This document shows positions 3,959 to 35,502 of a stretch of DNA of 35,502 nucleotides, piece by piece. This DNA is from a virus, in the IMG/VR virus record IMGVR_UViG_3300018475_000067. One strand, given 5' to 3'. Each line of letters starts with the position of its first letter. Position 1 is the stretch's first letter. The notes beneath the pieces are model-generated. The model ran no database searches and was not told the DNA's origin. It saw nothing but the letters and a program-made list of their open reading frames with translations. A program made the position numbers and the translations under genes.

Positions 3959-4027
3959 GGATTTTGGGTGTATATCTTCGGATGTATACTTGCCGCTCTG
4001 GTGCTGGGAACACTGGGGCGGTTTTTT
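3959..4027 (+). ncRNA. Candidate ~70-nt small RNA between int and abi
   Basis: Promoter at 3923-3952. Hairpin 3968-3989 has a UUCG loop. The terminator hairpin 3993-4021 needs G-U pairs, so it forms on the + strand only, and is followed by a T6 tract at 4022-4027. No ORF. Confidence 0.4.
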
Positions 4028-5042
4028 ATGTGAATCTTGCTTTTAACAATTTCTGAATCCGATCTAAGGTATTATTAGGAAGCCCGAACACTTCATAAAC
4101 AGATTTACCATTAAAAAGAATATTGTTTTGTTCGTAAGGTATAAATAGTGTATAGAGCTCTCTGTAAAATCCTGTTAATAAATAGGAATCATTTAATAAG
4201 ATTAAAATTACTAAAATAACAGAGAATAAATCATTTTGTCCCAAGCGAGAGTTATACTCGTATTCTTTTAAATTACCAAGAGAAAGCAATATCGCGGCTT
4301 TCTTGGGAAGGATTGGTAATTGCATAATACTAAAAGTTCTATTGCCATGTGCTATTTTATTTCGATATTCTTTTATTAAACTTAATGCTTTAATAAAAAA
4401 TTCTTTACGTTCATCAATAGTTAATGCTTCAGAAGATAAAAATTGAGAACAAATATCGGATTTATGTATTCCTTTTAGTATGGTATACCATTCGATACTT
4501 AATCCAAAAGGTATATTGGTAGTAATAATCCATGGTGGAATATGATTTTTTGTATTTCGGTAATGAATTAAACTTGGATTATTACGTTGGTTTGTAATGC
4601 ATTCTTTTATTTTACGAAGAATGGTATCGCGTTTACCGGTTGAATTACTATAATAACGATTGTATAAATAATCATCAGGATTATTATTGCTCATATCATT
4701 CCAATCGGTGTATACTCCATAGTTTTCAGAAATCAAATAGGAAATTCGTGATTTTAAGGATTTTTCAATATAAATAATATATTTAAAAAGAATAGTATTT
4801 AAACTGGTGTCGATGGAATGTAATGTGTATAGTTCTTCAAAACGAGTACCTTCTATAAATTTTTCAGAATTAGGAAGTTGTAAAAAAGTATTTTTATATC
4901 CATTTACAATAGAATAATATGAAAAATTTTGAAGCGCCATTTTAGTAAAGGATTCGTCTGCAATTATAATATTCCGGCTTTTCATAATTTCAATCATTTG
5001 TTCATAGGTTTTAAATGGTTTGTCATAAGTGATAATTGTCAT
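4026..5042 (-). CDS. Abi_2 family (AbiD/AbiF-like) abortive-infection protein
   Basis: N-terminal KPFKTYEQMIEIMKSRNIIIADE...LQNFSYYSIVNGY matches the Abi_2 family signature. Its position between int and cI is typical of a moron (accessory gene insert). Confidence 0.75.
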   Translation of the reverse strand: MTIITYDKPFKTYEQMIEIMKSRNIIIADESFTKMALQNFSYYSIVNGYKNTFLQLPNSEKFIEGTRFEELYTLHSIDTSLNTILFKYIIYIEKSLKSRISYLISENYGVYTDWNDMSNNNPDDYLYNRYYSNSTGKRDTILRKIKECITNQRNNPSLIHYRNTKNHIPPWIITTNIPFGLSIEWYTILKGIHKSDICSQFLSSEALTIDERKEFFIKALSLIKEYRNKIAHGNRTFSIMQLPILPKKAAILLSLGNLKEYEYNSRLGQNDLFSVILVILILLNDSYLLTGFYRELYTLFIPYEQNNILFNGKSVYEVFGLPNNTLDRIQKLLKARFT

Positions 5043-12413: not shown

Positions 12414-14420
12414 ATGGAATTAGACTGGTATAAAAAAGTCAGGTATGAGGACAAAAAAGAACTTGCGAAAGAAAGTCTGACAAAAATGGTAAGTTCTTTT
12501 GTGGCAGCAGGTTACTGGATCAGGAGCATCTGGGAAGATAAAGAATGTGAAAGCGAAGGATATGGAAGTATCTGGGAAATGGCTGAAAAAGAATTTGGAT
12601 TGAAAAAGAGTGAAGCATCCAGGGCTATCAGCATGAATAAAAAATATTCTGTGGATGGAAATTCACCGGTCATACTGGAAAGATACGTCATGTATAACAA
12701 AAGCCAGCTGCAGGAGATGTTAACCATGACAGAGGAACAGCTGGAGCAGGTAACTGTGGACATGAAAGTACAGGAACTGCGGCAGCTAAAAAGAGCAGGG
12801 GCAACACCGGAACAGTTACGTATGTTGAAAGAATTGCTTGCTGACTGGGTGAAAAGTGCATATGTAGAGATTTATCGCAGTGTGCAACAAGGCAAGGAGA
12901 TTATGGAAAGTATCGGGGAAATACTGAATGATGACGTTCCTGTGAAAAAAGGAGATAAAGTATTTTTTACGGGAGAGGATGTGGATGAACTGGTAGAACG
13001 TACTACCGGGGAAGTTCTGGCGAAGTATTCCAAAGGCATGGCGGTTTCCATTATTTTGGAAGAATACTGTAAGTTACAGGAGTTACGAAAAATCAAAAAG
13101 AAACCGGAGATAAGAGGACTTATGGATGATCCATACTGCAGAGAATGCGGGACACCATTAGACAGTCCGGAGCATGGTAAAAATCCATCTGTGATTTGCT
13201 CCTGGTGCGGACAGGCTGTGGATTGGAGTGATTATTCCGTGGAAGAGTCTGTTGCGACGTCGCAAGAACCAGTAATTACTGGAACGGAAGCGATTTTAGA
13301 GGCAGAAACTATTGAAAAAGATTTGGAAGTGTTTCAGGAACCGGCTGAGGATGTGACTGAGGTGCTGATAGAAGCGGAAATTGTGGAAGAAATTGAAGCA
13401 GATGAGGAAGAATGTGCAGAAGTTTTCGCATTCGAAGTGCTGGACAGTGATGAAGAAGCAGAAAGTATTATTGATGGAGAATTTCGGGAAATTTCAATGG
13501 AAGTAATTGGAGAAGAAGAGGTATCTGTTTATGGCTTGCCTAAAACAGTATATCCGGAAGGCAGCAGTATTTCTACTGTAGGTTGTGGGCATAAGTATAA
13601 TTGTTTCAGTTGTGCCCAGGAATGTGACATGCGGCAGGAAAAGCGATACTGCAGGGAAGCAACATTAGGAAGTCCGTTTTCTTGTACAACTATGAATGTT
13701 CTGGAATTGTTGAAAGAGGAATTTGCAGAGGTATGTCAGTTTGTCAATTATGAGAGGGCTGAGTATACTGCCGGAAGTAAGGAACCTGTTCCTTGTTGTA
13801 AAAAATGTCAGGTATCAGATTGTGGATACCGATGTGGAAGGTCTGTGTATGTAAAAACAGATACAAAGGAAGTAACAGAACCGGAAGAAACCACAATGGC
13901 AGCAGTAGAGGAAAGTGAACTGATGCAGATAAAGAAGGTTTTGGAAAAAGAAAATGAGCTGTTGGCGGAATATCTGAAAATTGATGATTTACCAGTATTT
14001 ACTGTAAAAAGACAGAAAATCATTGTAGGAGCTCTTGCAAATATGGTCTGTGAACTGGAAGAGATGGAACAGAAAACAGAACCGGTAGAACAGCCGGAAC
14101 TTCCGATTTTGAAAAATAATGACCAGAGACAGGAATTTATTGCAGATTATGAAAACTGGCCGGTATGGATGGAGCAGCCATTAACTGGTGAGAAATATTA
14201 CCGGTATGAGTTTGAAAACGGCGCCGCTTTTGTAGTGAAAGCATATTTTCACAAATGCTTTGATATTAATATTCGAGGGAAATGGGAAGACAGGTATAAA
14301 GATGGCTGGGGAGCTGAGGAATATTACATCATGACGGAAGGAAAGCATTTCAAGGATTGTCTGACAAATAAAAGCTGTATGATTGAGTTTTTGAAGAATT
14401 TGCAGAAGGAGAAAAAATGA
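12414..14420 (+). CDS. Large hypothetical protein (668 aa) with CxxC pairs and an acidic low-complexity core
   Basis: CRECGTPL...CSWCGQ zinc-ribbon-like motif, an E/D-rich stretch (residues ~290-380) and a Cys-rich segment. Confidence 0.6.
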   Translation: MELDWYKKVRYEDKKELAKESLTKMVSSFVAAGYWIRSIWEDKECESEGYGSIWEMAEKEFGLKKSEASRAISMNKKYSVDGNSPVILERYVMYNKSQLQEMLTMTEEQLEQVTVDMKVQELRQLKRAGATPEQLRMLKELLADWVKSAYVEIYRSVQQGKEIMESIGEILNDDVPVKKGDKVFFTGEDVDELVERTTGEVLAKYSKGMAVSIILEEYCKLQELRKIKKKPEIRGLMDDPYCRECGTPLDSPEHGKNPSVICSWCGQAVDWSDYSVEESVATSQEPVITGTEAILEAETIEKDLEVFQEPAEDVTEVLIEAEIVEEIEADEEECAEVFAFEVLDSDEEAESIIDGEFREISMEVIGEEEVSVYGLPKTVYPEGSSISTVGCGHKYNCFSCAQECDMRQEKRYCREATLGSPFSCTTMNVLELLKEEFAEVCQFVNYERAEYTAGSKEPVPCCKKCQVSDCGYRCGRSVYVKTDTKEVTEPEETTMAAVEESELMQIKKVLEKENELLAEYLKIDDLPVFTVKRQKIIVGALANMVCELEEMEQKTEPVEQPELPILKNNDQRQEFIADYENWPVWMEQPLTGEKYYRYEFENGAAFVVKAYFHKCFDINIRGKWEDRYKDGWGAEEYYIMTEGKHFKDCLTNKSCMIEFLKNLQKEKK

Positions 14421-14962
14421 ATTACTTTGAATTAAAAATAACCGAAGAACAAAGAATAAATGAATTTAAGCAAATTACCAAGGGAGTATTTACAGAAAAA
14501 CAAGCAGGGAAGCTGATAGAAATGGGATATTTCATGGTACCGGCATCTTTAACACATCACGGAACACAGTCGGGAGACCTTTATCATCATAGTAAACTGA
14601 TTTATTTGCAGTTAAAGGAATACACGGAAAAACTGTATCTGGAGTGGAAAAATGAAAGAAGTCCCATGGTGGTGGCATTCTTACATGATTTATGCAAGGC
14701 AGATGATTATGTTTTGAAAGACGGGGCATATGTTGGGAATAGAGAAATGCTTTTAAGTGGCCATGGAGAAAAGTCAGTTATTATGGCACTGCAATTGTTC
14801 CCGGATCTGACAGACGAAGAAATCATGTGCATCCGGTATCATATGGGAGCCTATGAAGGACAGGAAAAGTGGAGAACACTGGGAAATGCCATAAAGAATT
14901 ATCCAAACATCCTATGGGTACATCAGGCGGATATGATAGCCAGTCAGGTATGGAAGGTATAA
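14417..14962 (+). CDS. HD-domain phosphohydrolase
   Basis: The series HH...AFLHDLCK...GHGEKS...IRYHMG...HQADMIAS is an H..HD..H..D pattern. Confidence 0.65.
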   Translation: MNYFELKITEEQRINEFKQITKGVFTEKQAGKLIEMGYFMVPASLTHHGTQSGDLYHHSKLIYLQLKEYTEKLYLEWKNERSPMVVAFLHDLCKADDYVLKDGAYVGNREMLLSGHGEKSVIMALQLFPDLTDEEIMCIRYHMGAYEGQEKWRTLGNAIKNYPNILWVHQADMIASQVWKV

Positions 14963-15012: not shown

Positions 15013-15630
15013 ATGAGTAAAGCATTAGAGTTAGCGAAAGAATTATTAAAGGTTTTGAATGAGGAAAATGCAGCAAAAAAGAATATTGAGCAGTACCAGC
15101 TTTCTACATTGGAACCAGAAGAAGTTTTTAAAGTCGGGGAACATGATTTTATTGTACTGGAACAGATGGAAGGACAGACCGCAGTTATTTCAAAAGAGTT
15201 TATGGCAAAGGGTAAGAAATTTGATGAAGATACCAGAGATTACAATACATCCGCTATCAGGAAGTTTATTGAAAGTGAAATTCAACCGGTAATCGAAGCG
15301 GCAGTAGGAAGTGAAAATCTTGTGGAACATGAAGTGGAACTTACTTCCGTGGATATGCAGAAAGAAATTAATAATTGCAAATGTAAAGTTAGATTGATTA
15401 CTTTTGATGAAGCACGTAAATATAACGATTTGATTGCTGATAAAAATATTGGTGACTGGTGGTGGACATGTACACCGTGGAGCACTAAGGAACGCGGATG
15501 GGAGTACTCGCTCGCCGTTGTTTGCCCGTCCGGCTATTTCAGCGACTGTAACTGCAATGACGACAGCGGTGTTCGCCCTGTTTGTATCTTAAAATCTAAT
15601 ATCTTTGTATCTAAAGGAGGAGAGAAATAA
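15013..15630 (+). CDS. DGR variable protein 1 (DUF6273 / C-type-lectin-fold-like)
   Basis: C-terminus WWWTCTPWS...VVCPSGYFSDCNCNDDSGVRPVCI. VR1 lies in the last ~40 codons. Confidence 0.85.
   Translation: MSKALELAKELLKVLNEENAAKKNIEQYQLSTLEPEEVFKVGEHDFIVLEQMEGQTAVISKEFMAKGKKFDEDTRDYNTSAIRKFIESEIQPVIEAAVGSENLVEHEVELTSVDMQKEINNCKCKVRLITFDEARKYNDLIADKNIGDWWWTCTPWSTKERGWEYSLAVVCPSGYFSDCNCNDDSGVRPVCILKSNIFVSKGGEK
15517..15579 (+). repeat. DGR variable region VR1
   Basis: A 63-nt match to the TR with 11 differences, all at TR adenines. Confidence 0.9.
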
Positions 15631-16220
15631 TGGCTAAAAATCTGGAACAGAGAGTGGAAGAACTTGAAAAAATCATAAAGAAAATGCAGGCAAAGAATTT
15701 GAAATTAAAAAAAGATTTAGCAGTAGGAGATACATTTGAACTTATTGGACTTAAATGGAAAATCTTAGACATTGCAGAGCAGGGGTATAAATGTATTGCA
15801 GAAAAACTTCCGGAAAATAAAAAGTTTGGAAATAACAATGATTGGAAAGAAAGCAGTATTCGGGAATATTTGAACGGAGAGTTTTACGAGAAATTAGAGG
15901 AAGTAATAGGGGAAGATAACATTATTTCTTTTGAAAGAAGTTTGTTGTCCCTAGATGGTCAGACAGAATATGGAACTTGTGAAGATAAGGTGTCCATTGT
16001 CAGTCTGGATGAATACAGACAGTATAGAGCATTGCTTCCAAATGAAGAATATTACTGGTGGACTCTTACACCGGATACTACAAAATGTAATGGAAATGAG
16101 TCGTGGATCCTCGTTGTTTGCCCGTCCGGCGATATCAGCGGCAATAACTTCAATATCAACGGCGGTGTTCGCCCTGTTTGTATCTTTTCATCTGCAATCT
16201 TTGAATCAGAGGAAGGTTAA
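15630..16220 (+). CDS. DGR variable protein 2 (paralog of target 1)
   Basis: C-terminus YYWWTLTPD...VVCPSGDISGNNFNINGGVRPVCI. VR2 lies near the 3' end. Start overlaps the target 1 stop (TAATG). Confidence 0.85.
   Translation: MAKNLEQRVEELEKIIKKMQAKNLKLKKDLAVGDTFELIGLKWKILDIAEQGYKCIAEKLPENKKFGNNNDWKESSIREYLNGEFYEKLEEVIGEDNIISFERSLLSLDGQTEYGTCEDKVSIVSLDEYRQYRALLPNEEYYWWTLTPDTTKCNGNESWILVVCPSGDISGNNFNINGGVRPVCIFSSAIFESEEG
16113..16175 (+). repeat. DGR variable region VR2
   Basis: A 63-nt match to the TR with 8 differences, all at TR adenines. Confidence 0.9.
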
Positions 16221-16592: not shown

Positions 16593-16620
16593 TTATTACA
16601 GGATATCTGATGCATAAACC

Positions 16621-16683
16621 GTTGTTTGCCCGTCCGGCAATATCAACAACAATAACTACAATAACAACAACGGTGTTCGCCCT
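16621..16683 (+). repeat. DGR template repeat (TR)
   Basis: GTTGTTTGCCCGTCCGGC-AATATCAACAACAATAACTACAATAACAACAAC-GGTGTTCGCCCT. Non-coding, with an AAY-rich core holding 20 adenines in 11 codon-equivalents. Confidence 0.9.
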
Positions 16684-16788
16684 ATTCTGTATCATACAGA
16701 CCGGAAGAGTAGGCAACAAGCCGAAATCAGAAAAAGATACAAAAAATCAGATATCCTTCCACTAGGTGGTAAATACAAAGGTATTTTT

Positions 16789-18485: not shown

Positions 18486-18899
18486 GTGATAGAAAAAGAG
18501 TCATGGAGAATTATAGAGCTGATTATCCGAAGATACCCGGACAAGAAGAGAGAATATGAAGAATATGTATCGGATGTTATCATGGCTAGCAGTACCGGAG
18601 AAGAATACTGTGGCAGCAGCTCTGATAATAAACCCCAGTCTGTAACAGAAGCCAAGGCTCTTAAAATGACCAGTGCTTATATGGATAGGCTGAAACGGGA
18701 AATATATGCAGTTGAAACGGTGTATAGTGGATTAAAGGAAGAAGAGAAGAAAGTCATGCGTGAGAGGTTCTGGACGGACAGAAGGAGGAATGTTCCATAT
18801 CTTAACATGAAAACAGTAAGTTACAGTGAAACACAAATGAGAAGGATTGTGTTTAAAATCATTTGTCAGGTGGGAAGATTTTTAGGGGAAATCAATTAG
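18486..18899 (+). CDS. RinA/ArpU-family late transcriptional activator
   Basis: Size, the ...IIRRYPDKKREYEEY... N-terminus and the sigma-region-4-like C-terminus (SYSETQMRRIVFKIICQVGRFLG). Lies upstream of the packaging genes. Confidence 0.6.
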   Translation: MIEKESWRIIELIIRRYPDKKREYEEYVSDVIMASSTGEEYCGSSSDNKPQSVTEAKALKMTSAYMDRLKREIYAVETVYSGLKEEEKKVMRERFWTDRRRNVPYLNMKTVSYSETQMRRIVFKIICQVGRFLGEIN

Positions 18900-18958: not shown

Positions 18959-18987
18959 TTGACATATGGTGCACCATATAATATATT
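18959..18987 (+). promoter_or_regulatory. Promoter (TTGACA, 17 nt, TATATT) whose spacer is a perfect 16-bp palindrome
   Basis: ATATGGTGCACCATAT at 18964-18979 is its own reverse complement. Confidence 0.55.
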
Positions 18988-19994: not shown

Positions 19995-20086
19995 ACAGGG
20001 GGCATACCACCCCCTGGATGGGTGTGAATGAGGTTCACGCCATCACTGCACAAATATCTCGCTGAGAAAAAATGAGGAATGAAATT

Positions 20087-20359
20087 ATGGCTAATGTGAA
20101 GGTAGAAATCAATTATAAAGGGCTGTTGGAACTCTTTAAAAATGAGCAAATAAAAGAAAAATGTATTTCAGTAGCAAATAATGTGGCACAAATTGCAGGT
20201 GAAGGATATAACGTAAGCAATTGGACAGGACCACATAGAGCAGGGGCGACAGTTTGGTGTGATTCGTATGATGCAATTCGAGACAATATGAAAAATAATA
20301 CAATGCTGAAAGCATTGGGAGCTTCGGTTCCAAAAAATAAAATTGTAGTGAGAAAATAA
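20087..20359 (+). CDS. Hypothetical protein (90 aa) upstream of portal
   Basis: ATG at 20087 with GAGGA 7 nt upstream. Confidence 0.5.
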   Translation: MANVKVEINYKGLLELFKNEQIKEKCISVANNVAQIAGEGYNVSNWTGPHRAGATVWCDSYDAIRDNMKNNTMLKALGASVPKNKIVVRK

Positions 20360-20369
20360 GGAGCCTGAA

Positions 20370-21638
20370 ATGAGCAATTACAAAGGGATAGTATATCTGA
20401 GAAAAAAGTTAAATCAGAAGAGAGAACGGGTATTAAAAAGATATAAGTATTATGAAATGAAGAATGTGGTAAGAGACTTGAATATCGCAGTTCCGGCAGA
20501 AATAAAAGGATTACATTCCATGCTTGGCTGGTGCGGAAAAGCAGTGGACAGTGTTGCGGATAGATTAATTTTCCGGGAATTTGAAGATGATAATTTTGAT
20601 TTATCAGAAATTTTTCAAATGAATAATCCTGATATTTTTTATGACAGTGCTGTATTATCGGCATTGATTTCTTCCTGTTGTTTTATTTATATTTCAGCAG
20701 ATGAAAGCGGATTTCCCAGACTGCAGGTAATTGATGGAGCAAATGCAACCGGAATATTAGACCCGATTACAGGATTATTAACAGAAGGATATGCAGTTCT
20801 GGAAAAAGATGATAACGAGAATGCGATATTAGAAGCATATTTTCAGAAAGGACAAACAACTTTTATCAGAAAAGGTGTCCGAAATCATCAGGTAGTAAAA
20901 AACAGTGCGCCTTATCCTTTGTTGGTACCAATAATCTATAAACCGGATGCCAGAAGAGTATTTGGACATTCCAGAATCAGCAGAGCATGTATGAGTCTGG
21001 TGGATGCAGCCATAAGGACTGTGAAGCGTTCTGAAGTTTCAGCAGAATTTTATAGTTTCCCACAAAAATACATTACTGGTTTAAGTGAAGATGCAGAAAT
21101 TGCAGATAAATGGAGAGCATCTATGTCCAGTCTGCTGTCATTTACAAAGGATGACGAGGGAGATAGTCCTAAGTTAGGACAATTTACACAGCAGTCTATG
21201 TCACCGTATACAGAACAGCTTCGGACATTCGCGGCACTGTTTGCAGGAGAAACCGGTTTGACTTTGGATGATCTGGGATTTGTTTCTGACAATCCATCCA
21301 GCCAGGAGGCAATAAAAGCATCACATGAAACCTTACGATTAACCGCTAAGAAGGCACAAAGAACCTTCGGAAGCGGTTTTTTAAATGTCGGCTATCTAGC
21401 AGCCTGCGTAAGAGATGATTTTGCTTATCAGAGAAGACAACTTTATCTTACAAAGCCTGTTTGGGAGCCGATTTTTGAACCGGATGCCTCAATGTTATCC
21501 AGTATAGGAGACGGGGCAATTAAGATTAATCAGGCAGTGCCCGGATACTTTAATAAGGATAATCTGAGAAACATTACAGGAATTGAACCAAGTAAGATGG
21601 AACCGGTAACAGTAGTACAGCCGAATCAGGAGGTATAA
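20370..21638 (+). CDS. Portal protein (SPP1 gp6-like)
   Basis: 422 aa, followed by a MuF-type gene. The N-terminal region is typical of SPP1-family portals. Confidence 0.8.
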   Translation: MSNYKGIVYLRKKLNQKRERVLKRYKYYEMKNVVRDLNIAVPAEIKGLHSMLGWCGKAVDSVADRLIFREFEDDNFDLSEIFQMNNPDIFYDSAVLSALISSCCFIYISADESGFPRLQVIDGANATGILDPITGLLTEGYAVLEKDDNENAILEAYFQKGQTTFIRKGVRNHQVVKNSAPYPLLVPIIYKPDARRVFGHSRISRACMSLVDAAIRTVKRSEVSAEFYSFPQKYITGLSEDAEIADKWRASMSSLLSFTKDDEGDSPKLGQFTQQSMSPYTEQLRTFAALFAGETGLTLDDLGFVSDNPSSQEAIKASHETLRLTAKKAQRTFGSGFLNVGYLAACVRDDFAYQRRQLYLTKPVWEPIFEPDASMLSSIGDGAIKINQAVPGYFNKDNLRNITGIEPSKMEPVTVVQPNQEV

Positions 21639-22981
21639 TGGAAGATATTGCACCAAAGTTATTAGAAAAAATACAAAAAGATTTTCAGACTATGTTTGAT
21701 AAGAGTGAAATCATTTCCAAGTTATATGCAAAAGTAAGAGATGGTACCGCTACTTACAAAGAAGCTAATGAGTTCTCTGTTGAGGTAGGGCATATCCTTG
21801 CAAATGCATATGGTAACAACCTTAGTTCTGAAGTTCTTCCGGATGGGAAGATGTATTACAACATTGCTAAGAGAGTTATCCGTCCTACGATGGAAAATAA
21901 TTATCATTTGATTACGGAAGTTACGAAAGAGGTACAAAGGTCTTTAAACAGTGAGGCAGGAATTGGAATAAAGCCAATCATACCGGAATTAAATCAAGAC
22001 CGTATTGACGGAATTCTAAACCGTATTTCCAGTGAAGATATATTTGATGATGTAAAATGGATATTGGGAGAACCGGTAGTCAATTTCAGTCAGAGTATTG
22101 TGGATGATGCTATCAAAGTAAATGCTGAATTTCACGGAAAGGCAGGAATGAAGCCTAAGATTGTTCGTAAAATGGCAGGCAACTGTTGCGAATGGTGTAA
22201 GGCGGTAACAGGTAAATATTTCTATCCGGATGTACCGCAGGATGTTTACAGAAGACATCAGAGGTGCAGATGTACGGTGGATTATGTCCCGGGAGATGGA
22301 AAAGTTCAGAATGTACATACAAAGCAGTGGCGGAAGGAAGATGGCAGTAACATAAGGTTAGAGAAAAGAAAGGAACAGCATTATTTACCAGTCAAAGGAA
22401 GTGGAAAATTAAGTTTGACGGATAGAAAGATGGGGATTATAAATCTAATAGAGATAGATGGATATTCAAAAGTATATGTTGAAGAAGGGGTAAAGATTAA
22501 ACCTAAAGCATTACATACCATAACTAAAAATATTGATGAAGCAATAGATTTTTATAGAGGAGATAAAAGTAGAAAACCAATAATAGCAGTTGTTGCTATG
22601 AAAAATTTAAATGGTGCACTTGGAAAATATGATTGTGTACAAAATGTAATATACATTGCTCCGGATACAGGAGATGCAAAAATGTTGAGTGTGTTTTTTG
22701 CAATGGATAAAAATGTAGCAATAGGGAGTACGGAGTATCATGAAACATGGCATTGGATGCAAGCACAAGGTTACAAAGGAACGATTACAGAAGCTAACAG
22801 GAATGTAGAATATATGCCTTGGCTAGTAGAAAAATGTAAAAAAAATATTGTTTCTTTAGGGATAAATGAGTATAATGTTAATGAAATATCATCATATGCT
22901 GCTAAGGCGTTTGTTTGGGAAAGATATGATGAAGTGGAGGCCGAATACTATACATTGAAGTGCTTAAAAAGAGGGAGATAA
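21638..22981 (+). CDS. MuF/SPP1 gp7-like minor head protein with a C-terminal ~200-aa HExxH-containing extension
   Basis: The head-morphogenesis domain ends with CCEWCKAVTGKYFYPDVPQDVYRRHQRCRCTVDY. The extension carries HETWH at 22739-22753. Confidence 0.75.
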   Translation: MEDIAPKLLEKIQKDFQTMFDKSEIISKLYAKVRDGTATYKEANEFSVEVGHILANAYGNNLSSEVLPDGKMYYNIAKRVIRPTMENNYHLITEVTKEVQRSLNSEAGIGIKPIIPELNQDRIDGILNRISSEDIFDDVKWILGEPVVNFSQSIVDDAIKVNAEFHGKAGMKPKIVRKMAGNCCEWCKAVTGKYFYPDVPQDVYRRHQRCRCTVDYVPGDGKVQNVHTKQWRKEDGSNIRLEKRKEQHYLPVKGSGKLSLTDRKMGIINLIEIDGYSKVYVEEGVKIKPKALHTITKNIDEAIDFYRGDKSRKPIIAVVAMKNLNGALGKYDCVQNVIYIAPDTGDAKMLSVFFAMDKNVAIGSTEYHETWHWMQAQGYKGTITEANRNVEYMPWLVEKCKKNIVSLGINEYNVNEISSYAAKAFVWERYDEVEAEYYTLKCLKRGR

Positions 22982-22985
22982 TATT

Positions 22986-23144
22986 ATGTATATCATTATT
23001 CCGGAAGAAATGAAAAAATTGGAGAGGATATATACACCTTATTTAGATGGAGTACATTTAAAGGAAGGTGCACCGAAAGAAGCAAAGGAAGCATATGAAA
23101 CATTTTATAATTGGTTTGGTAAAAAATTAGGTTTAGAACAATAA
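22986..23144 (+). CDS. Small protein (52 aa), candidate cognate partner of the MuF C-terminal domain
   Basis: Manual ORF MYIIIPEEMKKLERIYTPYLDGVHLKEGAPKEAKEAYETFYNWFGKKLGLEQ. It starts 5 nt after the MuF stop. Confidence 0.4.
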   Translation: MYIIIPEEMKKLERIYTPYLDGVHLKEGAPKEAKEAYETFYNWFGKKLGLEQ

Positions 23145-23147
23145 GAA

Positions 23148-23179
23148 GTCACCGTTATATTTAGTGCGGTGATTTTTTT
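23148..23179 (+). terminator. Intrinsic terminator
   Basis: GTCACCG-12 nt-CGGTGAT, with the final T beginning a T7 run. Confidence 0.6.
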
Positions 23180-23202
23180 GTACAAAAAATCAGGAGGCTT
23201 AT

Positions 23203-23553
23203 ATGGCAAAAGATGAATACTATGTGCTGGTATGCAAAATATTAGTATATCTTTACAAGCGTTTAAAAGGAAAAACAAAAATAAAGCCGGAAGAATATTT
23301 ACTTCCATTGACAAAAGATTTCCCCATACATGAAGAATACTTTTTATATGTTTTGGAGAAGATGCAGGAGCAGGGATATATAGAAAAAGTGGTCTTTGTA
23401 CGAGCATGGGGAGAAGATATTATTATGGCAGATAGCAGTAAGATAAGAATTACACCTGTGGGAATTGACTATCTGCGTAATGACAGTGTTATGAATAAGC
23501 TGATACATACCATACCGGAAGCGGCAGCGATTATTAGTTTATTTCAAGTATAA
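23203..23553 (+). CDS. YjcQ-like winged-helix protein, possible small terminase / DNA-recognition subunit
   Basis: YYVLVCKILVYLYKRLKG... resembles the YjcQ family. Lies immediately upstream of terL. Confidence 0.45.
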   Translation: MAKDEYYVLVCKILVYLYKRLKGKTKIKPEEYLLPLTKDFPIHEEYFLYVLEKMQEQGYIEKVVFVRAWGEDIIMADSSKIRITPVGIDYLRNDSVMNKLIHTIPEAAAIISLFQV

Positions 23554-23574
23554 AAGCAGAAAGTGAGGAGCAGT

Positions 23575-25014
23575 ATGGCAGAACCGCGAATTGGTCGCCA
23601 GACTCCCACACAATCCGTTGTATTACCTTACTATGTAACAAAAGGGCAGGAAGCAATCGATTATTATAATAATTCCGGAAGAACTGCACAGCAGTGGCAG
23701 GAACTTTTATTAAGTGATATTTTGGCTGTGAATGAAGAAGGACTTTGGGTACATACCAAATTCGGTTATTCCGTGCCACGAAGAAATGGAAAGAATGAGA
23801 TTGCAGCAATCCGGGAGGTGTTTGGACTTTTAAAGGGGGAAAGAATACTTCATACAGCCCTCAGAACTACAACCAGTAGTGCTGCATCCAAACGATTGTC
23901 AGCTATTCTGAATGGAATGGGATATTGCGAAATCGCAAGACCAAAAGCTGGAGAGGAATATAAGAAAGCATACACCTACTCCAAACAATTTGGTCTTGAA
24001 AGAATTGTAATCCTGGATGAAGGAGGAGGCAGTTGTGATTTTAGAACCCGTTCCTCCAAAGGTGGTCTGGGAGAAGGTTTCGATTTGCTGGTTATTGATG
24101 AAGCACAAGAATATACTGACGATCAGGAGTCAGCACTGAAATATGTGGTAACAGACTCTAAAAATCCACAAACAATCTTTTGTGGAACACCACCTACACC
24201 GGTAAGCTCCGGTACCGTATTTACTAAATTAAGAGTTTCTATTTTATCAGGAGGAACGGTAAATGCAGGTTGGGCGGAATGGTCAGTGGAAAAACATTCT
24301 AATCCAAGAGATAAAGAATTGTGGTATGAAACCAATCCATCACTGGGAACGATTTTTACAGAAAGGTCTGTTACAGATGAAATTGGAACAGATGATGTAG
24401 ATTTCAATATTCAGAGACTGGGATTGTGGATTAAGTATAATCAGAAATCTGCTATCAGCAAAGTGGAATGGCAGGAATTAAAGGCAGAGAAATTGCCGGA
24501 GTTATCCGGAGCATTATTTGCAGGTATCAAATATAGTCATGAAGGTGGGAATGTAGCATTGTCCATAGCGGTCAAAACCAAAGATAAAAAGATTTTTGTA
24601 GAAACTATTGACTGTCGGGAAGTCAGAGCCGGAAATTATTGGATAATTGACTTTTTAAGAAATGCAGCCATTGAAAAAATAGTGGTAGATGGTGCCAATG
24701 GACAGCAGATTTTAGCAACTGAAATGAAAGAGGCAAAATTAAAAACACCGTTACTTCCTACGGTAAAAGAAATTATTGTGGCAAATTCCACCTTTGAACA
24801 GGGAATTTTTCAGGCAAATATTGTCCATAGCGGTCAACCTTCTGTAGAACAGGTAGTTGGAAATTGCGAGAAGAGAGCCATTGGAGCTAATGGAGGTTTT
24901 GGATATAAAGCTATGCAGGAGGATATTGAGATTGCAATTTTGGACAGTCTGGCATTAGCCTACTGGGTATGTAGTACAAGTAAGGAAAGAAAAAAACAAA
25001 AAGTAAGCTATTAA
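23575..25014 (+). CDS. terL: Terminase large subunit
   Basis: Walker A-like PRRNGKNE, Walker B LLVIDEAQ, and a C-terminal nuclease-type region. ATG 23575 follows a GTGAGGAG SD sequence. Confidence 0.85.
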   Translation: MAEPRIGRQTPTQSVVLPYYVTKGQEAIDYYNNSGRTAQQWQELLLSDILAVNEEGLWVHTKFGYSVPRRNGKNEIAAIREVFGLLKGERILHTALRTTTSSAASKRLSAILNGMGYCEIARPKAGEEYKKAYTYSKQFGLERIVILDEGGGSCDFRTRSSKGGLGEGFDLLVIDEAQEYTDDQESALKYVVTDSKNPQTIFCGTPPTPVSSGTVFTKLRVSILSGGTVNAGWAEWSVEKHSNPRDKELWYETNPSLGTIFTERSVTDEIGTDDVDFNIQRLGLWIKYNQKSAISKVEWQELKAEKLPELSGALFAGIKYSHEGGNVALSIAVKTKDKKIFVETIDCREVRAGNYWIIDFLRNAAIEKIVVDGANGQQILATEMKEAKLKTPLLPTVKEIIVANSTFEQGIFQANIVHSGQPSVEQVVGNCEKRAIGANGGFGYKAMQEDIEIAILDSLALAYWVCSTSKERKKQKVSY

Positions 25015-33186: not shown

Positions 33187-34653
33187 ATGGATAAATTATA
33201 TGAGCGAATAGATTTTCAAAATGATATGCCACCGGCTTTAAATGCGGATAATCTGAATGCGATAAGTAAGGCATTGGAAGAATTGGATTTAAGGGTAATA
33301 AGTATAGCACCGGAAACTTTGCTTTTGCGTTTAAAGGACATTAGTGAGTTGTTAAGAGATACACAGACTTTATTTGTGGATGCAGAAGGTAATGCCATAT
33401 TAGCAAAGAGTTATGCAGCTGGTGGTACCGGAAGCAGAGATGGAGAAGATACGGACAATGCAAAATACTATAAAGAGCAGGCACGAGACTCAGCAAATAA
33501 AGCGGAAATTTATGGTGCAGAAGCAGAAACGTATGCAAATGCAGTACGTGACAGATATACAGAATATTATGACCACTTAGACCGGGCAAATAATCCTCAT
33601 AACGTCACCAAAGAGCAGATAGGGTTAGATAATGTACCAAATGTGGCACCAATTGCAAACCTCCTTACCACAATAGTCGGAAGTCCTTTAGATGCCACTA
33701 TGGGTAAAGAACTGAATGACAAAATCACAGCTTTGCAAGAAAACGGTGCAGGTAATGATTATTATGTCGGAACCTGCACTACATCTGCATCCACAGCAGA
33801 CAAAGTTGTGACGATTTCTGATTTTAATTTGAAAGTAGGAGCCGTTGTACATGTGAAGTTTTCTTATACCAATACTTCCAGTTCAGCTACCTTAAATGTA
33901 TCTTCCACGGGTGCAAAAGCAATGTATTACATGGATGGAACAAGAATGTATTATATTCCTTCCGGAGTGTATCATTCTTTTATCTATGATGGTACATATT
34001 GGAGATATATGGGGACGCAGAATGCGATTATTGCCTCAAATTATGAGCGGTATGGTATTAAGATGGAGTATAGAGCATTGATACCGCTTTTATCGGGGTA
34101 TTCGATAGATATAGGTACAATTTCCAAACCGTTTAATAATATTTATAGTTCCAATATTTATGTAAAAAGGGCTGGAACTACAACTCAAACGCTTGCGGTG
34201 TTACCGCCATTACCATTAGTAAGAGGAAACTTTTGTCTATATGATTATCACCAGATTTTATTCACCGAGTACAGTGATTATGTAAAGAGTGTTATAAACG
34301 GAGTTTTTCATGCAGCAGGTTGTAATATAGGATGCAATGTAGTTTCCGGAGGTTCGGGAAATTATGAGGCGTTATTTTTATTCAGAATTATGGGATATGT
34401 GGTAAATCCGAGCGACTATTATCTTGCAAAACCTTTTGTAGCAGATGTTTTGTTGTCTACTTCCCAAACGAACGACTGCTCTGGTGAATATACAAACTGT
34501 GCAACAATAGAAACTCCATATAGTCAGAGTATTACATTGACCTTAACTGGGGTCAGCGTTAACAGTTGTGGGGTTGCATCCGGAGCTGCATATCTTAAGT
34601 TGACGGCTACATCCAGAAATATTCATATATCAGAAATTGATTTGATGCCATAG
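33187..34653 (+). CDS. Tail fibre / receptor-binding protein
   Basis: 488 aa. N-terminal YERIDFQNDMPPALNADNLNAISKALEELD is typical of fibre N-termini. The C-terminal region is divergent. Confidence 0.6.
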   Translation: MDKLYERIDFQNDMPPALNADNLNAISKALEELDLRVISIAPETLLLRLKDISELLRDTQTLFVDAEGNAILAKSYAAGGTGSRDGEDTDNAKYYKEQARDSANKAEIYGAEAETYANAVRDRYTEYYDHLDRANNPHNVTKEQIGLDNVPNVAPIANLLTTIVGSPLDATMGKELNDKITALQENGAGNDYYVGTCTTSASTADKVVTISDFNLKVGAVVHVKFSYTNTSSSATLNVSSTGAKAMYYMDGTRMYYIPSGVYHSFIYDGTYWRYMGTQNAIIASNYERYGIKMEYRALIPLLSGYSIDIGTISKPFNNIYSSNIYVKRAGTTTQTLAVLPPLPLVRGNFCLYDYHQILFTEYSDYVKSVINGVFHAAGCNIGCNVVSGGSGNYEALFLFRIMGYVVNPSDYYLAKPFVADVLLSTSQTNDCSGEYTNCATIETPYSQSITLTLTGVSVNSCGVASGAAYLKLTATSRNIHISEIDLMP

Positions 34654-34665
34654 GAGGAAGAAAAA

Positions 34666-35502
34666 ATGGTACAGTTGATTATTGACGAAGTAACAGGGAA
34701 AGTTTTGGGATTTAATACAATTATTCCAACCATCACAAAAGACATTATTATCATAGACGACGAGGAGTTTGAGAAACTACGAAATGAGAAGGATTTCAAG
34801 AAACTGTATTATGAAGATGGAATAATGGTAGAAAAAGAAGAAAAGGACAGTGAAAACGAGGAAATAGACGAACTGGAAAAACAGGAGTTTAGTTATCGTG
34901 AAAAAGTAGCAAAAGAACAGAAGATTTTCATGGATTGTGTGTTGGAAGGAAAGTCTACGGAAGAGGCAGCAGCCACCGTAAGAATGAATCGGCAGCAGTT
35001 GGAGGAGATTTTACAAAGAAAAAAAGATTACTGGTCCGGGTATGAAGAAAAAAGACAAAAGAAAGTAGTAGAAAAATTTGAAAAGGAAGAAAAGGAACTG
35101 TCTAATAAATATTTTCTTTCCGTTGTAACAGCTGTTCGTGATGAAAATGATTATATAGAAGAATGGCTGGATTATCACATTGAAACAATGGGTGTGGAAC
35201 ATTTCTACATTTATGATAATGAGTCCGTTGTCTCAGTTAGAGAATATTTGGAGAGGATCAAATATCGATATTTGGACAAGCTGACAATTATCCCGTGGAA
35301 AACTAGCACACATACCCAGCAGGATACTTGTAACGACTGGCTGCAGAACTATGGACCGGAAACGAAATGGTTTATATGTATGGATGTGGATGAGTTCATT
35401 CATATCAAAGAACAGAATAAAACTTTGAAAGAGTTTTTGGAAGAAAATGCTGCATATTCCAGTGTGAAATGTTTGTGGAAACACTTTACAGCAAACGGAC
35501 AG
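34666..35502 (+). CDS. Glycosyltransferase (GT92/GT2-like), N-terminal part. Runs off the window and continues at 1-486 (399 aa total).
   Basis: No stop before the window end. YFLSVVTAVRDENDYIEEWLDYHIETMGVEHFYIYDNES is a GT92/GT2-type nucleotide-sugar-binding motif. DVDEF acts as the DxD motif. Confidence 0.7.
   Translation, partial: MVQLIIDEVTGKVLGFNTIIPTITKDIIIIDDEEFEKLRNEKDFKKLYYEDGIMVEKEEKDSENEEIDELEKQEFSYREKVAKEQKIFMDCVLEGKSTEEAAATVRMNRQQLEEILQRKKDYWSGYEEKRQKKVVEKFEKEEKELSNKYFLSVVTAVRDENDYIEEWLDYHIETMGVEHFYIYDNESVVSVREYLERIKYRYLDKLTIIPWKTSTHTQQDTCNDWLQNYGPETKWFICMDVDEFIHIKEQNKTLKEFLEENAAYSSVKCLWKHFTANGQ
35380..35502 (+). repeat. Terminal overlap identical to 1-123
   Basis: Direct comparison of the two ends. 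Confidence 0.95.

Follow-up and report, generated by a model that had tools for sequence, protein, structure and literature searches.

What does a phage hypermutate when the targets of its diversity-generating retroelement (DGR) are not tail fibres? The usual account of phage DGRs is that they switch tropism by varying tail fibres. The question is raised by IMG/VR virus record IMGVR_UViG_3300018475_000067, a DNA stretch of 35,502 nucleotides (the window), in which the DGR targets are two small adjacent genes, T1 and T2, lying within the early gene block. We find that small targets of this kind are early-block genes wherever we have looked, and we tentatively favour the view that their products work inside the infected cell and not as part of the virion.

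T1 and T2 form the target end of a complete, active DGR in which one template repeat (TR), rich in AAY codons, templates two variable repeats (VRs). The cassette has the order T1–T2–avd–TR–RT, RT being the reverse transcriptase (Table 1); the ATG of T2 overlaps the stop codon of T1 (ATAATG) and avd follows T2 without a gap. As the initial annotation had proposed, the two targets are small tandem paralogs: both open reading frames are present and align with 39% identity over 142 amino acids (BLASTP E = 6e-32). The window contains three 67-nt repeat copies, VR1, VR2 and TR, and all 20 VR–TR differences fall on TR adenines; of the 67 bases of the TR, 21 are adenines. The theoretical TR-derived diversity is about 2.5e12 amino-acid combinations. 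Features by which a DGR is recognized are present here: an RVT_1-type RT beside the TR, TR/VR differences confined to adenines and an Avd encoded between target and TR. The motifs YMDD and LGNQVAQ can be read in the RT translation, the start codon of which lies 103 nt from the end of the TR, and the avd product is also matched, below cut-off, by the curated models NF033474 (E = 1.3e-10) and Pfam bAvd and 23S_rRNA_IVP. The VRs end 38–48 nt short of the stop codon, both terminating in GGTGTTCGCCCTGTT, a candidate for the conserved G+C-rich end element (IMH) of DGRs, where the TR has GGTGTTCGCCCTATT, and an inverted repeat directly 3′ of the TR may be part of the TR-RNA spacer structure used for priming.

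By chance, 0.03 and 0.01 copies of the invariant repeat flanks would be expected in the window; exactly three are present. The tail-fibre-like gene (33187–34653) and all other genes therefore lack a VR, in agreement with what had been noted of the tail fibre. A direct repeat of 123 nt at positions 1–123 and 35380–35502 indicates that the contig is a circularly closed, complete genome of ~35.4 kb; with three repeat copies in a closed genome, T1 and T2 are the sole DGR targets of this phage.

Both VRs vary in nature. Among relatives from other samples (clusters at >=90% identity, that is at least 90%), two T1 proteins carry ten (P0357) and seven (P0358) substitutions, all at residues 175–185, and two T2 proteins carry nine, all at residues 168–178 (P0363), and one (P0364); the sequences are otherwise identical, natural variants differing solely inside 11 VR codons. 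A Lachnospiraceae metagenome-assembled genome (MAG) in NCBI encodes an identical T2 (MBE5852280.1) beside a T1 with a VR that differs at ten residues, from which it follows that the two VRs turn over independently. Across 58 related IMG/VR loci with 115 targets, 1223 of the 1329 VR–TR mismatches (92%) lie on TR adenines, and diversification is seen in all copies of T1 and T2. Such patterns point indirectly to ongoing mutagenic retrohoming and to a DGR that is active in nature. Among more distant small targets, resembling those of phages nd12 and Brigit, three clusters at 90% identity (P0257, P0245 and P0322) comprise 23,439, 10,131 and 3,204 distinct sequences; cluster sizes of this order are the footprint of massive VR diversification in public metagenomes.

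Both T1 and T2 exceed the Pfam gathering threshold for DUF6273 (PF19789), a C-type-lectin-like domain known as a DGR target in gut phages (PMC10743442), and PF19789 is precomputed on nearly all homologs. DUF1566 and FGE-sulfatase, which the initial annotation had named alongside DUF6273, give no Pfam match to either protein at E <= 0.1. Pfam likewise returned no Ig-like match and no DUF3310 (PF11753) in T1 or T2, and NCBIfam no match at all; phrog_9958, which both match strongly, is a family of unknown function. A search with T1 retrieved 6352 homologs. The family profile gathered 7787 clusters at 50% identity (E <= 1e-3), larger multi-domain DUF6273 proteins included, and the best 147 of these have a median length of 213 aa. 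At the nucleotide level the cassette has a single match among 50,697 phage records, an unannotated faecal fragment of 5.6 kb. Two giant proteins, P0366 (6979 aa) and P0442 (4905 aa), contain 28 and 14 DUF6273-like stretches; P0442 begins with a signal or transmembrane (TM) segment and is presumably a bacterial surface protein.

The C-terminal motif reported to flank the VR is present in both proteins, as DWWWTCTP...VVCPSG-YFSDCNCNDDS-GVRPVCI in T1 and YYWWTLTP...VVCPSG-DISGNNFNING-GVRPVCI in T2. An AlphaFold2 model of T2 was obtained from a 78-sequence alignment across subfamilies (pLDDT 87.7, pTM 0.79); a first model from a shallow alignment of 42 close homologs (pLDDT 62, the whole VR region below 50) was discarded. 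The model consists of an N-terminal helix (residues 5–20, with pLDDT merely 56–73), a flexible linker and a globular α/β domain at about residues 34–190, in which the VR forms a β-hairpin (strands 169–173 and 177–179). Each VR recodes 11 residues, which the model places on a surface β-hairpin near the C-terminus of a lectin-like domain. The lectin-like fold suspected at the outset is supported to this extent; similarity to classical C-type lectins is weak (Foldseek E = 0.19–1.5, target-normalised TM 0.40–0.54). Of the coiled-coil segment claimed for the N-termini it is the helix that finds support: its hydrophobic residues, judged by eye, recur at a spacing of 3–4 and the model supports an amphipathic, heptad-like helix.

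Among solved structures, significant similarity to T2 is confined to one, PDB 9qa6, the N-terminal DUF6273 domain of the IgA protease of Thomasclavelia ramosa (PMC12402451), which was found by Foldseek (E = 9.5e-6, query-normalised TM 0.59) and by a profile search of the PDB (E = 6.5e-5, over the W-TP...SSG...GVRP motif). A PDB sequence search with T2 alone returned nothing. Unlike T1 and T2, the 9qa6 domain is larger (residues 31–322) and is part of a secreted, cell-wall-anchored bacterial peptidase. We know of no DGR association of this domain. The structural matches in BFVD are gut-phage proteins with DUF6273; DUF1566 is matched at E of about 0.03.

How do T1 and T2 compare with DGR targets of established type? 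The cassette order and the adenine-specific rewriting of a C-terminal VR are those of the Mtd DGR of Bordetella phage BPP-1 (mtd–avd–TR–brt), and placement of the VR on a C-type-lectin-like scaffold is established for DGRs (PMC10743442, PMC8144416). Mtd is a 381-aa trimeric protein of the tail-fibre tip, with an N-terminal β-prism and β-sandwich, and is encoded with the tail genes. T1 and T2, by contrast, have none of those domains, their lectin-like domain being preceded by a 16-residue helix and a linker, and their early-block genes precede the tape-measure gene by 13 kb. Mtd itself was not matched in Foldseek, the PDB sequence search or the profile search, and T1 and T2 do not qualify as Mtd-like tail-fibre receptor-binding proteins. 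Tentaclins and Hoc-like targets share with T1 and T2 a DUF6273 domain with a VR hairpin (PMC10743442; 10.64898/2026.05.08.723808). Tentaclins differ in their length of 550–620 aa, in a VR near the N-terminus that is followed by Ig-like domains, and in genes that adjoin tail or lysis genes; T1 and T2 do not belong to this tentaclin/Hoc-like decoration type either.

The closest counterparts are small second targets. Baykov et al. described, in phages nd4 and nd12, large Ig-bearing tentaclins together with a small second target, tgt2 (PMC10743442), and small targets are also known from the Faecalibacterium phages Lelie and CP11 (PMC11792537) and from Toutatisvirus (gp24; 10.1101/2024.10.15.618418). 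With T2 as the query, tblastn aligned the small targets at 25–34% identity (E = 7e-9 to 4e-20): nd4 at 32% (3e-20), nd12 at 32% (2e-16), Lelie at 30% (6e-13), Toutatis at 27% (6e-13) and Brigit at 25% (7e-9). Residues W144, T147, G167, G179, R181 and P182 are common to the alignment. The tgt2 proteins resemble T1 and T2 in having a single DUF6273 domain in ~200–300 aa, a VR hairpin at the C-terminal end of that domain, a short flanking helix, no signal peptide and a gene in an early, non-structural part of the genome. By sequence, we assign T1 and T2 to this large DUF6273 family, the published 'tgt2' or 'small target' type. The differences lie in arrangement. The small protein of nd4, nd12, Lelie and Toutatis is a second, remote target beside a large Ig-bearing tentaclin near the RT, whereas here two tandem small paralogs are the sole targets and lie directly upstream of avd–TR–RT. 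The flanking helix is N-terminal in T1 and T2 and C-terminal in nd4, Toutatis and Brigit, and the window phage differs from the tgt2 phages in host family (Lachnospiraceae) and virion type (siphovirus-like).

The initial annotation had regarded an intracellular binder of variable host or defence factors as an unusual use of a DGR. The target type is not without precedent: it was already known from the three studies just cited, and a non-structural target had already been proposed by Benler et al. (PMC8008677). The second DGR target of Quimbyviridae has a C-type-lectin domain; its gene is remote from the structural module and has defence and counter-defence genes as neighbours, and those authors read the protein as non-structural. 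It is the precedent for a non-structural phage DGR target. Quimbyviridae differ from the window phage in being Bacteroidetes phages with a frameshifted RT, and their DGR also has a structural target. No Quimbyvirus record was among the matches of T2 in a protein search of the phage collection, in which Quimbyvirus records were not identified.

The placement of T1 and T2 had been described as lying between an HD hydrolase and the late activator, outside the structural module, and this is borne out by the profile matches of the two flanking genes (Table 1). We surveyed where such genes lie in relatives, using 20 prophage loci, 80 listed IMG/VR loci (the matches listed by the search) and phages nd4, nd12, Toutatis, Lelie and Brigit; the fetched flanks reach 8–10 kb. 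Without exception among the lineages examined, the neighbours of the small DUF6273 gene are early, replication, recombination or methylase genes, and the gene is never in a tail or head module. Family genes are co-directional within the early block of gut Firmicutes phages, together with the lysogeny switch, recombination, replication, methylase and late-regulator genes. The genome collection gave 19 matches, all prophages, 18 of them in Lachnospiraceae MAGs (e.g. Roseburia, Agathobacter, Dorea and Mediterraneibacter); one further prophage locus was reached through a T2 homolog. Most of the 20 retain T1–T2–Avd–RT. The window is the genome of a temperate siphovirus-type phage with these prophages as its closest relatives, and its source is a gut Lachnospiraceae phage. 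The cassette is 48–89% identical to those of the prophages, and the portal, terminase (TerL) and capsid of the window phage have no counterpart in any of these prophages at E < 1e-5.

The IMG/VR loci give the same picture. T1 is followed directly by T2 in 74 of the 80, the exact order T1–T2–Avd–RT is found in 45, and the flanking genes are all co-directional. Among the 20 neighbour families met most often, those with an annotation are an SbcC-like ATPase, a primase/helicase, a DnaD-like loader, RNase H, three RecT-like families and DNA methyltransferases, with no structural gene among them. In the wider set, the small target of nd4 adjoins PolIII-alpha, with SSB and DnaC a few kilobases downstream, and those of Toutatis and Lelie lie amid an HD protein, methylases, a replication initiator and antiterminator Q. 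In nd12-like phages the gene is found between Lar-like/Dam and N6_N4 methylase/VRR_NUC/HNH/TerL. FP_Brigit (NC_047909.1) is instructive. Its gp06 (L004:3948-4559) is a small DUF6273 gene, the third in the early rightward operon, and all seven of its mismatches to the TR are on adenines; some 41 kb separate it from the TR and RT, which adjoin the tail fibre and a Hoc-like target, gp60 (region L112:32400-35791), for which the count is six of six. The same TR thus serves a tentaclin and a small target. A Bacillota MAG holds a lone T2-like gene (L024:3206-3874; 222 aa, 34% identity) beside an HTH repressor and followed by housekeeping-sized genes, including an 898-aa polymerase-like open reading frame; it could be what remains of a prophage, or a copy that has been domesticated.

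Could the placement carry no functional information, a mobile target–avd–TR–RT cassette having landed at permissive module boundaries with its targets merely carried along? The position of the cassette with respect to the same replication genes does vary among related prophages. In eight of the 80 IMG/VR loci the homolog of the 12414–14420 gene lies downstream of the RT/cassette and not upstream, showing movement of the cassette inside the early block; in one prophage (L013) the cassette is between replication genes, and in another (L010) the T1–T2 pair directly follows repressor/cro, upstream of the whole replication block and with no Avd or RT within 10 kb. DGR targets, moreover, usually adjoin avd–TR–RT. 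Against this explanation, the small DUF6273 genes of Toutatis, Lelie, nd4, nd12 and Brigit stay early though the RT cassette adjoins tail genes 17–41 kb away (10.1101/2024.10.15.618418, which describes the second VR gene of Toutatisvirus as a core gene that precedes the TR by 17.5 kb), and such genes are also early where no RT is nearby, in L010 and in L030, where the gene lies between helicase/VRR_NUC and a sigma-like regulator. The early-block position is therefore independent of RT location, the remote targets of Brigit, Toutatis, nd4 and nd12 contradict the idea of a by-product of mobility, and across more than 100 loci the cassette is never in or beside a structural module. We consider this explanation very improbable.

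The genomic context across many lineages favours a non-structural early protein. Many nd12-type relatives (e.g. P0257, P0245 and P0241) carry an N-terminal DUF3310, a domain of SaV, an early non-structural protein of lactococcal phages (PMC8306868); T1 and T2 themselves are not SaV-like. Early placement, the DUF3310 fusions and the association of the cassette with unrelated head and packaging modules all support a non-virion role. Our preferred reading, held with a little less than even confidence, is that T1 and T2 are early-expressed, non-virion, hypervariable soluble binders inside the infected cell. They would be transcribed with the early and middle genes, upstream of the RinA late activator, as the gene order suggests: genes from the replication block through avd are tightly packed or overlapping and a promoter/terminator scan found no terminator-like site between the replication genes and T1. 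They would act in the infected cell and not as tail-tip receptor-binding proteins; the two paralogs would provide two independently tunable specificities and might pair with each other by way of their short, amphipathic N-terminal helices. The likeliest class of ligand would be a strain-variable macromolecule of the host or a competing element that is bound early, for example a defence or takeover target. A more specific form of this proposal, which we regard as unlikely, is that gut Firmicutes phages use DGRs to diversify a family of small cytoplasmic lectin-fold proteins made as lytic growth begins, which would counter host defences or bind takeover targets that vary between strains, in an antibody-like and rapidly retargetable manner; in the window phage this would be the sole job of the DGR.

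Several considerations weigh against the intracellular reading. The timing of T1 and T2 expression rests on gene order, and early transcripts can last until assembly. Site counts in the promoter/terminator scan are not above shuffled expectation in total, so the scan is a weak pointer at most. T1 and T2 match no known defence or anti-defence family: NCBIfam gave none, and PADLOC defence models matched neither T1, T2 nor Avd, the RT showing generic RT/DRT similarity only. The behaviour of DUF6273 elsewhere favours an extracellular binder. The domain is the N-terminal part of a secreted, sortase-anchored IgA protease (PMC12402451), tentaclins have been detected in the vesicle/secretome fraction (10.64898/2026.05.08.723808), phage Pioen fuses DUF6273 to a tail-fibre-like N-terminus (PMC11792537), and the giant protein P0442 bears a signal; wherever the setting of DUF6273 is known, it is extracellular. 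The authors who described tgt2 supposed it, without experiment, to be an Mtd-like receptor binder (PMC10743442), and the literature has assumed this role for such proteins. Lastly, the conserved short terminal helices could be virion docking modules.

Many of these points suit the alternative that T1 and T2 are virion-associated accessory adhesins, encoded outside the structural module, attached through the helix to the tail tip or capsid and retargeting host-surface or mucosal ligands. A lectin-like fold with a surface VR hairpin is what known binders have (PMC10743442), the majority of viral DGR targets are tail proteins according to Roux et al. (PMC8144416), and the C-terminal part of each protein matches phrog_10993, 'Hoc-like head decoration' (E = 1e-6 to 5e-6). 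We rejected the Hoc-like label because the match (residues 148–203 of T1 and 111–195 of T2) aligns the VR-proximal part only, spanning just 50–85 residues around the VR, and because there are no Ig domains. Also counting against an adhesin is a gene that, in more than 100 loci from ~10 lineages, is never part of the head or tail module, that can be the third of an immediate-early operon, that travels with unrelated packaging and head modules and that in some relatives is fused to the early-protein domain DUF3310; the Mtd-type β-prism and sandwich are lacking, and there is no fold or sequence match to Mtd. Rare relatives have the layouts DUF3310–DUF6273–Big_13 or DUF6273–Big_9/13 (P0262, 479 aa; P0330, 482 aa). 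We set these aside as a virion link since such a layout is expected when a small target and a tentaclin are joined at the shared VR by misassembly or recombination. The preprint on Roseburia phage Shimadzu mentions no virion proteomics (10.1101/575076), and Shimadzu was not among the phage-collection records matched by T2 at the protein level. Overall we regard the virion adhesin as a serious rival, somewhat less probable than the intracellular reading.

The initial annotation was right that signal peptides and TM helices are absent from T1 and T2: the maximal Kyte–Doolittle means over 19 residues are 0.51 and 0.88. An N-terminal hydrophobic stretch occurs in none of 365 retrieved relatives and, among 147 diverse representatives, in one small protein and one giant of 4905 aa. 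Virion proteins need no export signal, so its absence is neutral as regards the adhesin. It counts against a further proposal, that T1 and T2 are soluble non-virion lectins that work outside the cell, released at lysis or in lysogen vesicles, where they would bind debris, bacteria, mucus or immune molecules in a lysogenic-conversion or 'public good' role. The proteins are small, soluble and acidic (pI 4.8 for T1 and 4.7 for T2), as would suit such lectins; lysogens of a Faecalibacterium prophage express a DUF6273 tentaclin that is diversified by a DGR and has been found in extracellular vesicles (10.64898/2026.05.08.723808); and the lone T2-like gene beside a repressor in the Bacillota chromosome fits as well. 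Set against this, T1 and T2 lie in a lytic early operon on the strand opposite the repressor and integrase and should therefore be silent in a lysogen, and a diffusing product would uncouple the VR variant from the genome that encodes it, weakening selection for a DGR. This role seems improbable to us.

In the gene order of the window, holin and endolysin come first, then a minus-strand block of integrase, AbiD-like gene and repressor. The tightly packed plus-strand early block includes the replication initiator (11427), a 668-aa protein and the HD hydrolase, and the T1–T2–avd–TR–RT cassette comes next; after the RT come an HTH protein and the RinA-family activator, then HNH, portal, head, terminase, tape-measure and tail genes. 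The HD hydrolase gene closes the replication block, and its first bases overlap the last ones of the 12414–14420 gene, the product of which is the 668-aa protein, an acidic, cysteine-rich early protein (phrog_15077) encoded upstream of the cassette here. In the gap 3′ of rinA lies the best plus-strand promoter match within 6–21 kb, a candidate start of the late unit. The AbiD-family abortive-infection gene (4026–5042, minus strand; PADLOC AbiD E = 1.7e-42; phrog_2158) adjoins the integrase and repressor. The packaging genes at 20072–25014 are in an unusual order, a neck-like gene, portal (20370) and minor head protein (21638) preceding the large terminase (23563). An open reading frame of ~400 aa spans the genome junction (about 34666 to 486), between the tail-fibre-like gene and the holin.

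Table 1. Features of the DGR cassette and its flanks (window positions).
Feature	Position	Strand	Evidence or description
HD-type phosphohydrolase	14417..14962	+	phrog_5889 E 7.6e-27; phrog_28876 E 1.6e-15 (metal-dependent phosphohydrolase PHROGs)
T1, DGR target 1, 205 aa	15013..15630	+	PF19789 30.3 bits (cut-off 23.5); phrog_9958 E 2.8e-31
VR1	15516..15582	+	encodes VVCPSG-YFSDCNCNDDS-GVRPV; 11 mismatches to TR, 11/11 on TR adenines
T2, DGR target 2, 196 aa	15630..16220	+	PF19789 45.6 bits (cut-off 23.5); phrog_9958 E 4.6e-43
VR2	16112..16178	+	encodes VVCPSG-DISGNNFNING-GVRPV; 9 mismatches to TR, 9/9 on TR adenines
avd (DGR accessory variability determinant), 123 aa	16221..16592	+	phrog_3206 'Avd protein of DGR' E 5.1e-22
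TR (template repeat)	16620..16686	+	VR-frame translation VVCPSG-NINNNNYNNNN-GVRPI; nine AAY codons
Inverted repeat CTGTAT-C-ATACAG	16687..16699	+	directly 3′ of TR, read from sequence
DGR reverse transcriptase, 346 aa	16789..17829	+	RVT_1 58.4 bits (cut-off 29.6); phrog_1423 E 1.5e-100
RinA-family late-gene activator	18486..18899	+	TIGR01636 32.0 bits (cut-off 31.9); phrog_36 E 3.7e-8
Candidate sigma-70-like promoter	18959..18987	+	TTGACA-17-TATATT, 11/12 consensus match

Given the published small DUF6273 targets and the Quimbyviridae proposal, neither the target type nor the idea of a non-structural target is new. What differs here is a pair of tandem small paralogs as the only targets, a cassette within the recombination/replication block and a subfamily with an N-terminal helix. 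The new point is the early-block placement of small DUF6273 targets in every lineage examined, which we have not found stated in the literature on such targets.

This placement suggests that phage hypermutation serves more than tail-fibre retargeting. Small DUF6273 targets are abundant in gut metagenomes and are the sole DGR targets in Lachnospiraceae phages like the one described here. Cultured lysogens exist for the Faecalibacterium homologs (Brigit, Toutatis and Lelie), so that either outcome is directly testable. If T1 and T2 are virion adhesins, they would be unusual receptor-binding proteins, encoded and probably expressed with early genes. If they are not part of the virion, hypermutation would also serve an intracellular or early-infection function, and their ligand would define a new axis of phage–host conflict. 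Should they prove to be cytoplasmic counter-measures, tail-fibre retargeting would be one of two major uses of DGRs in phages.

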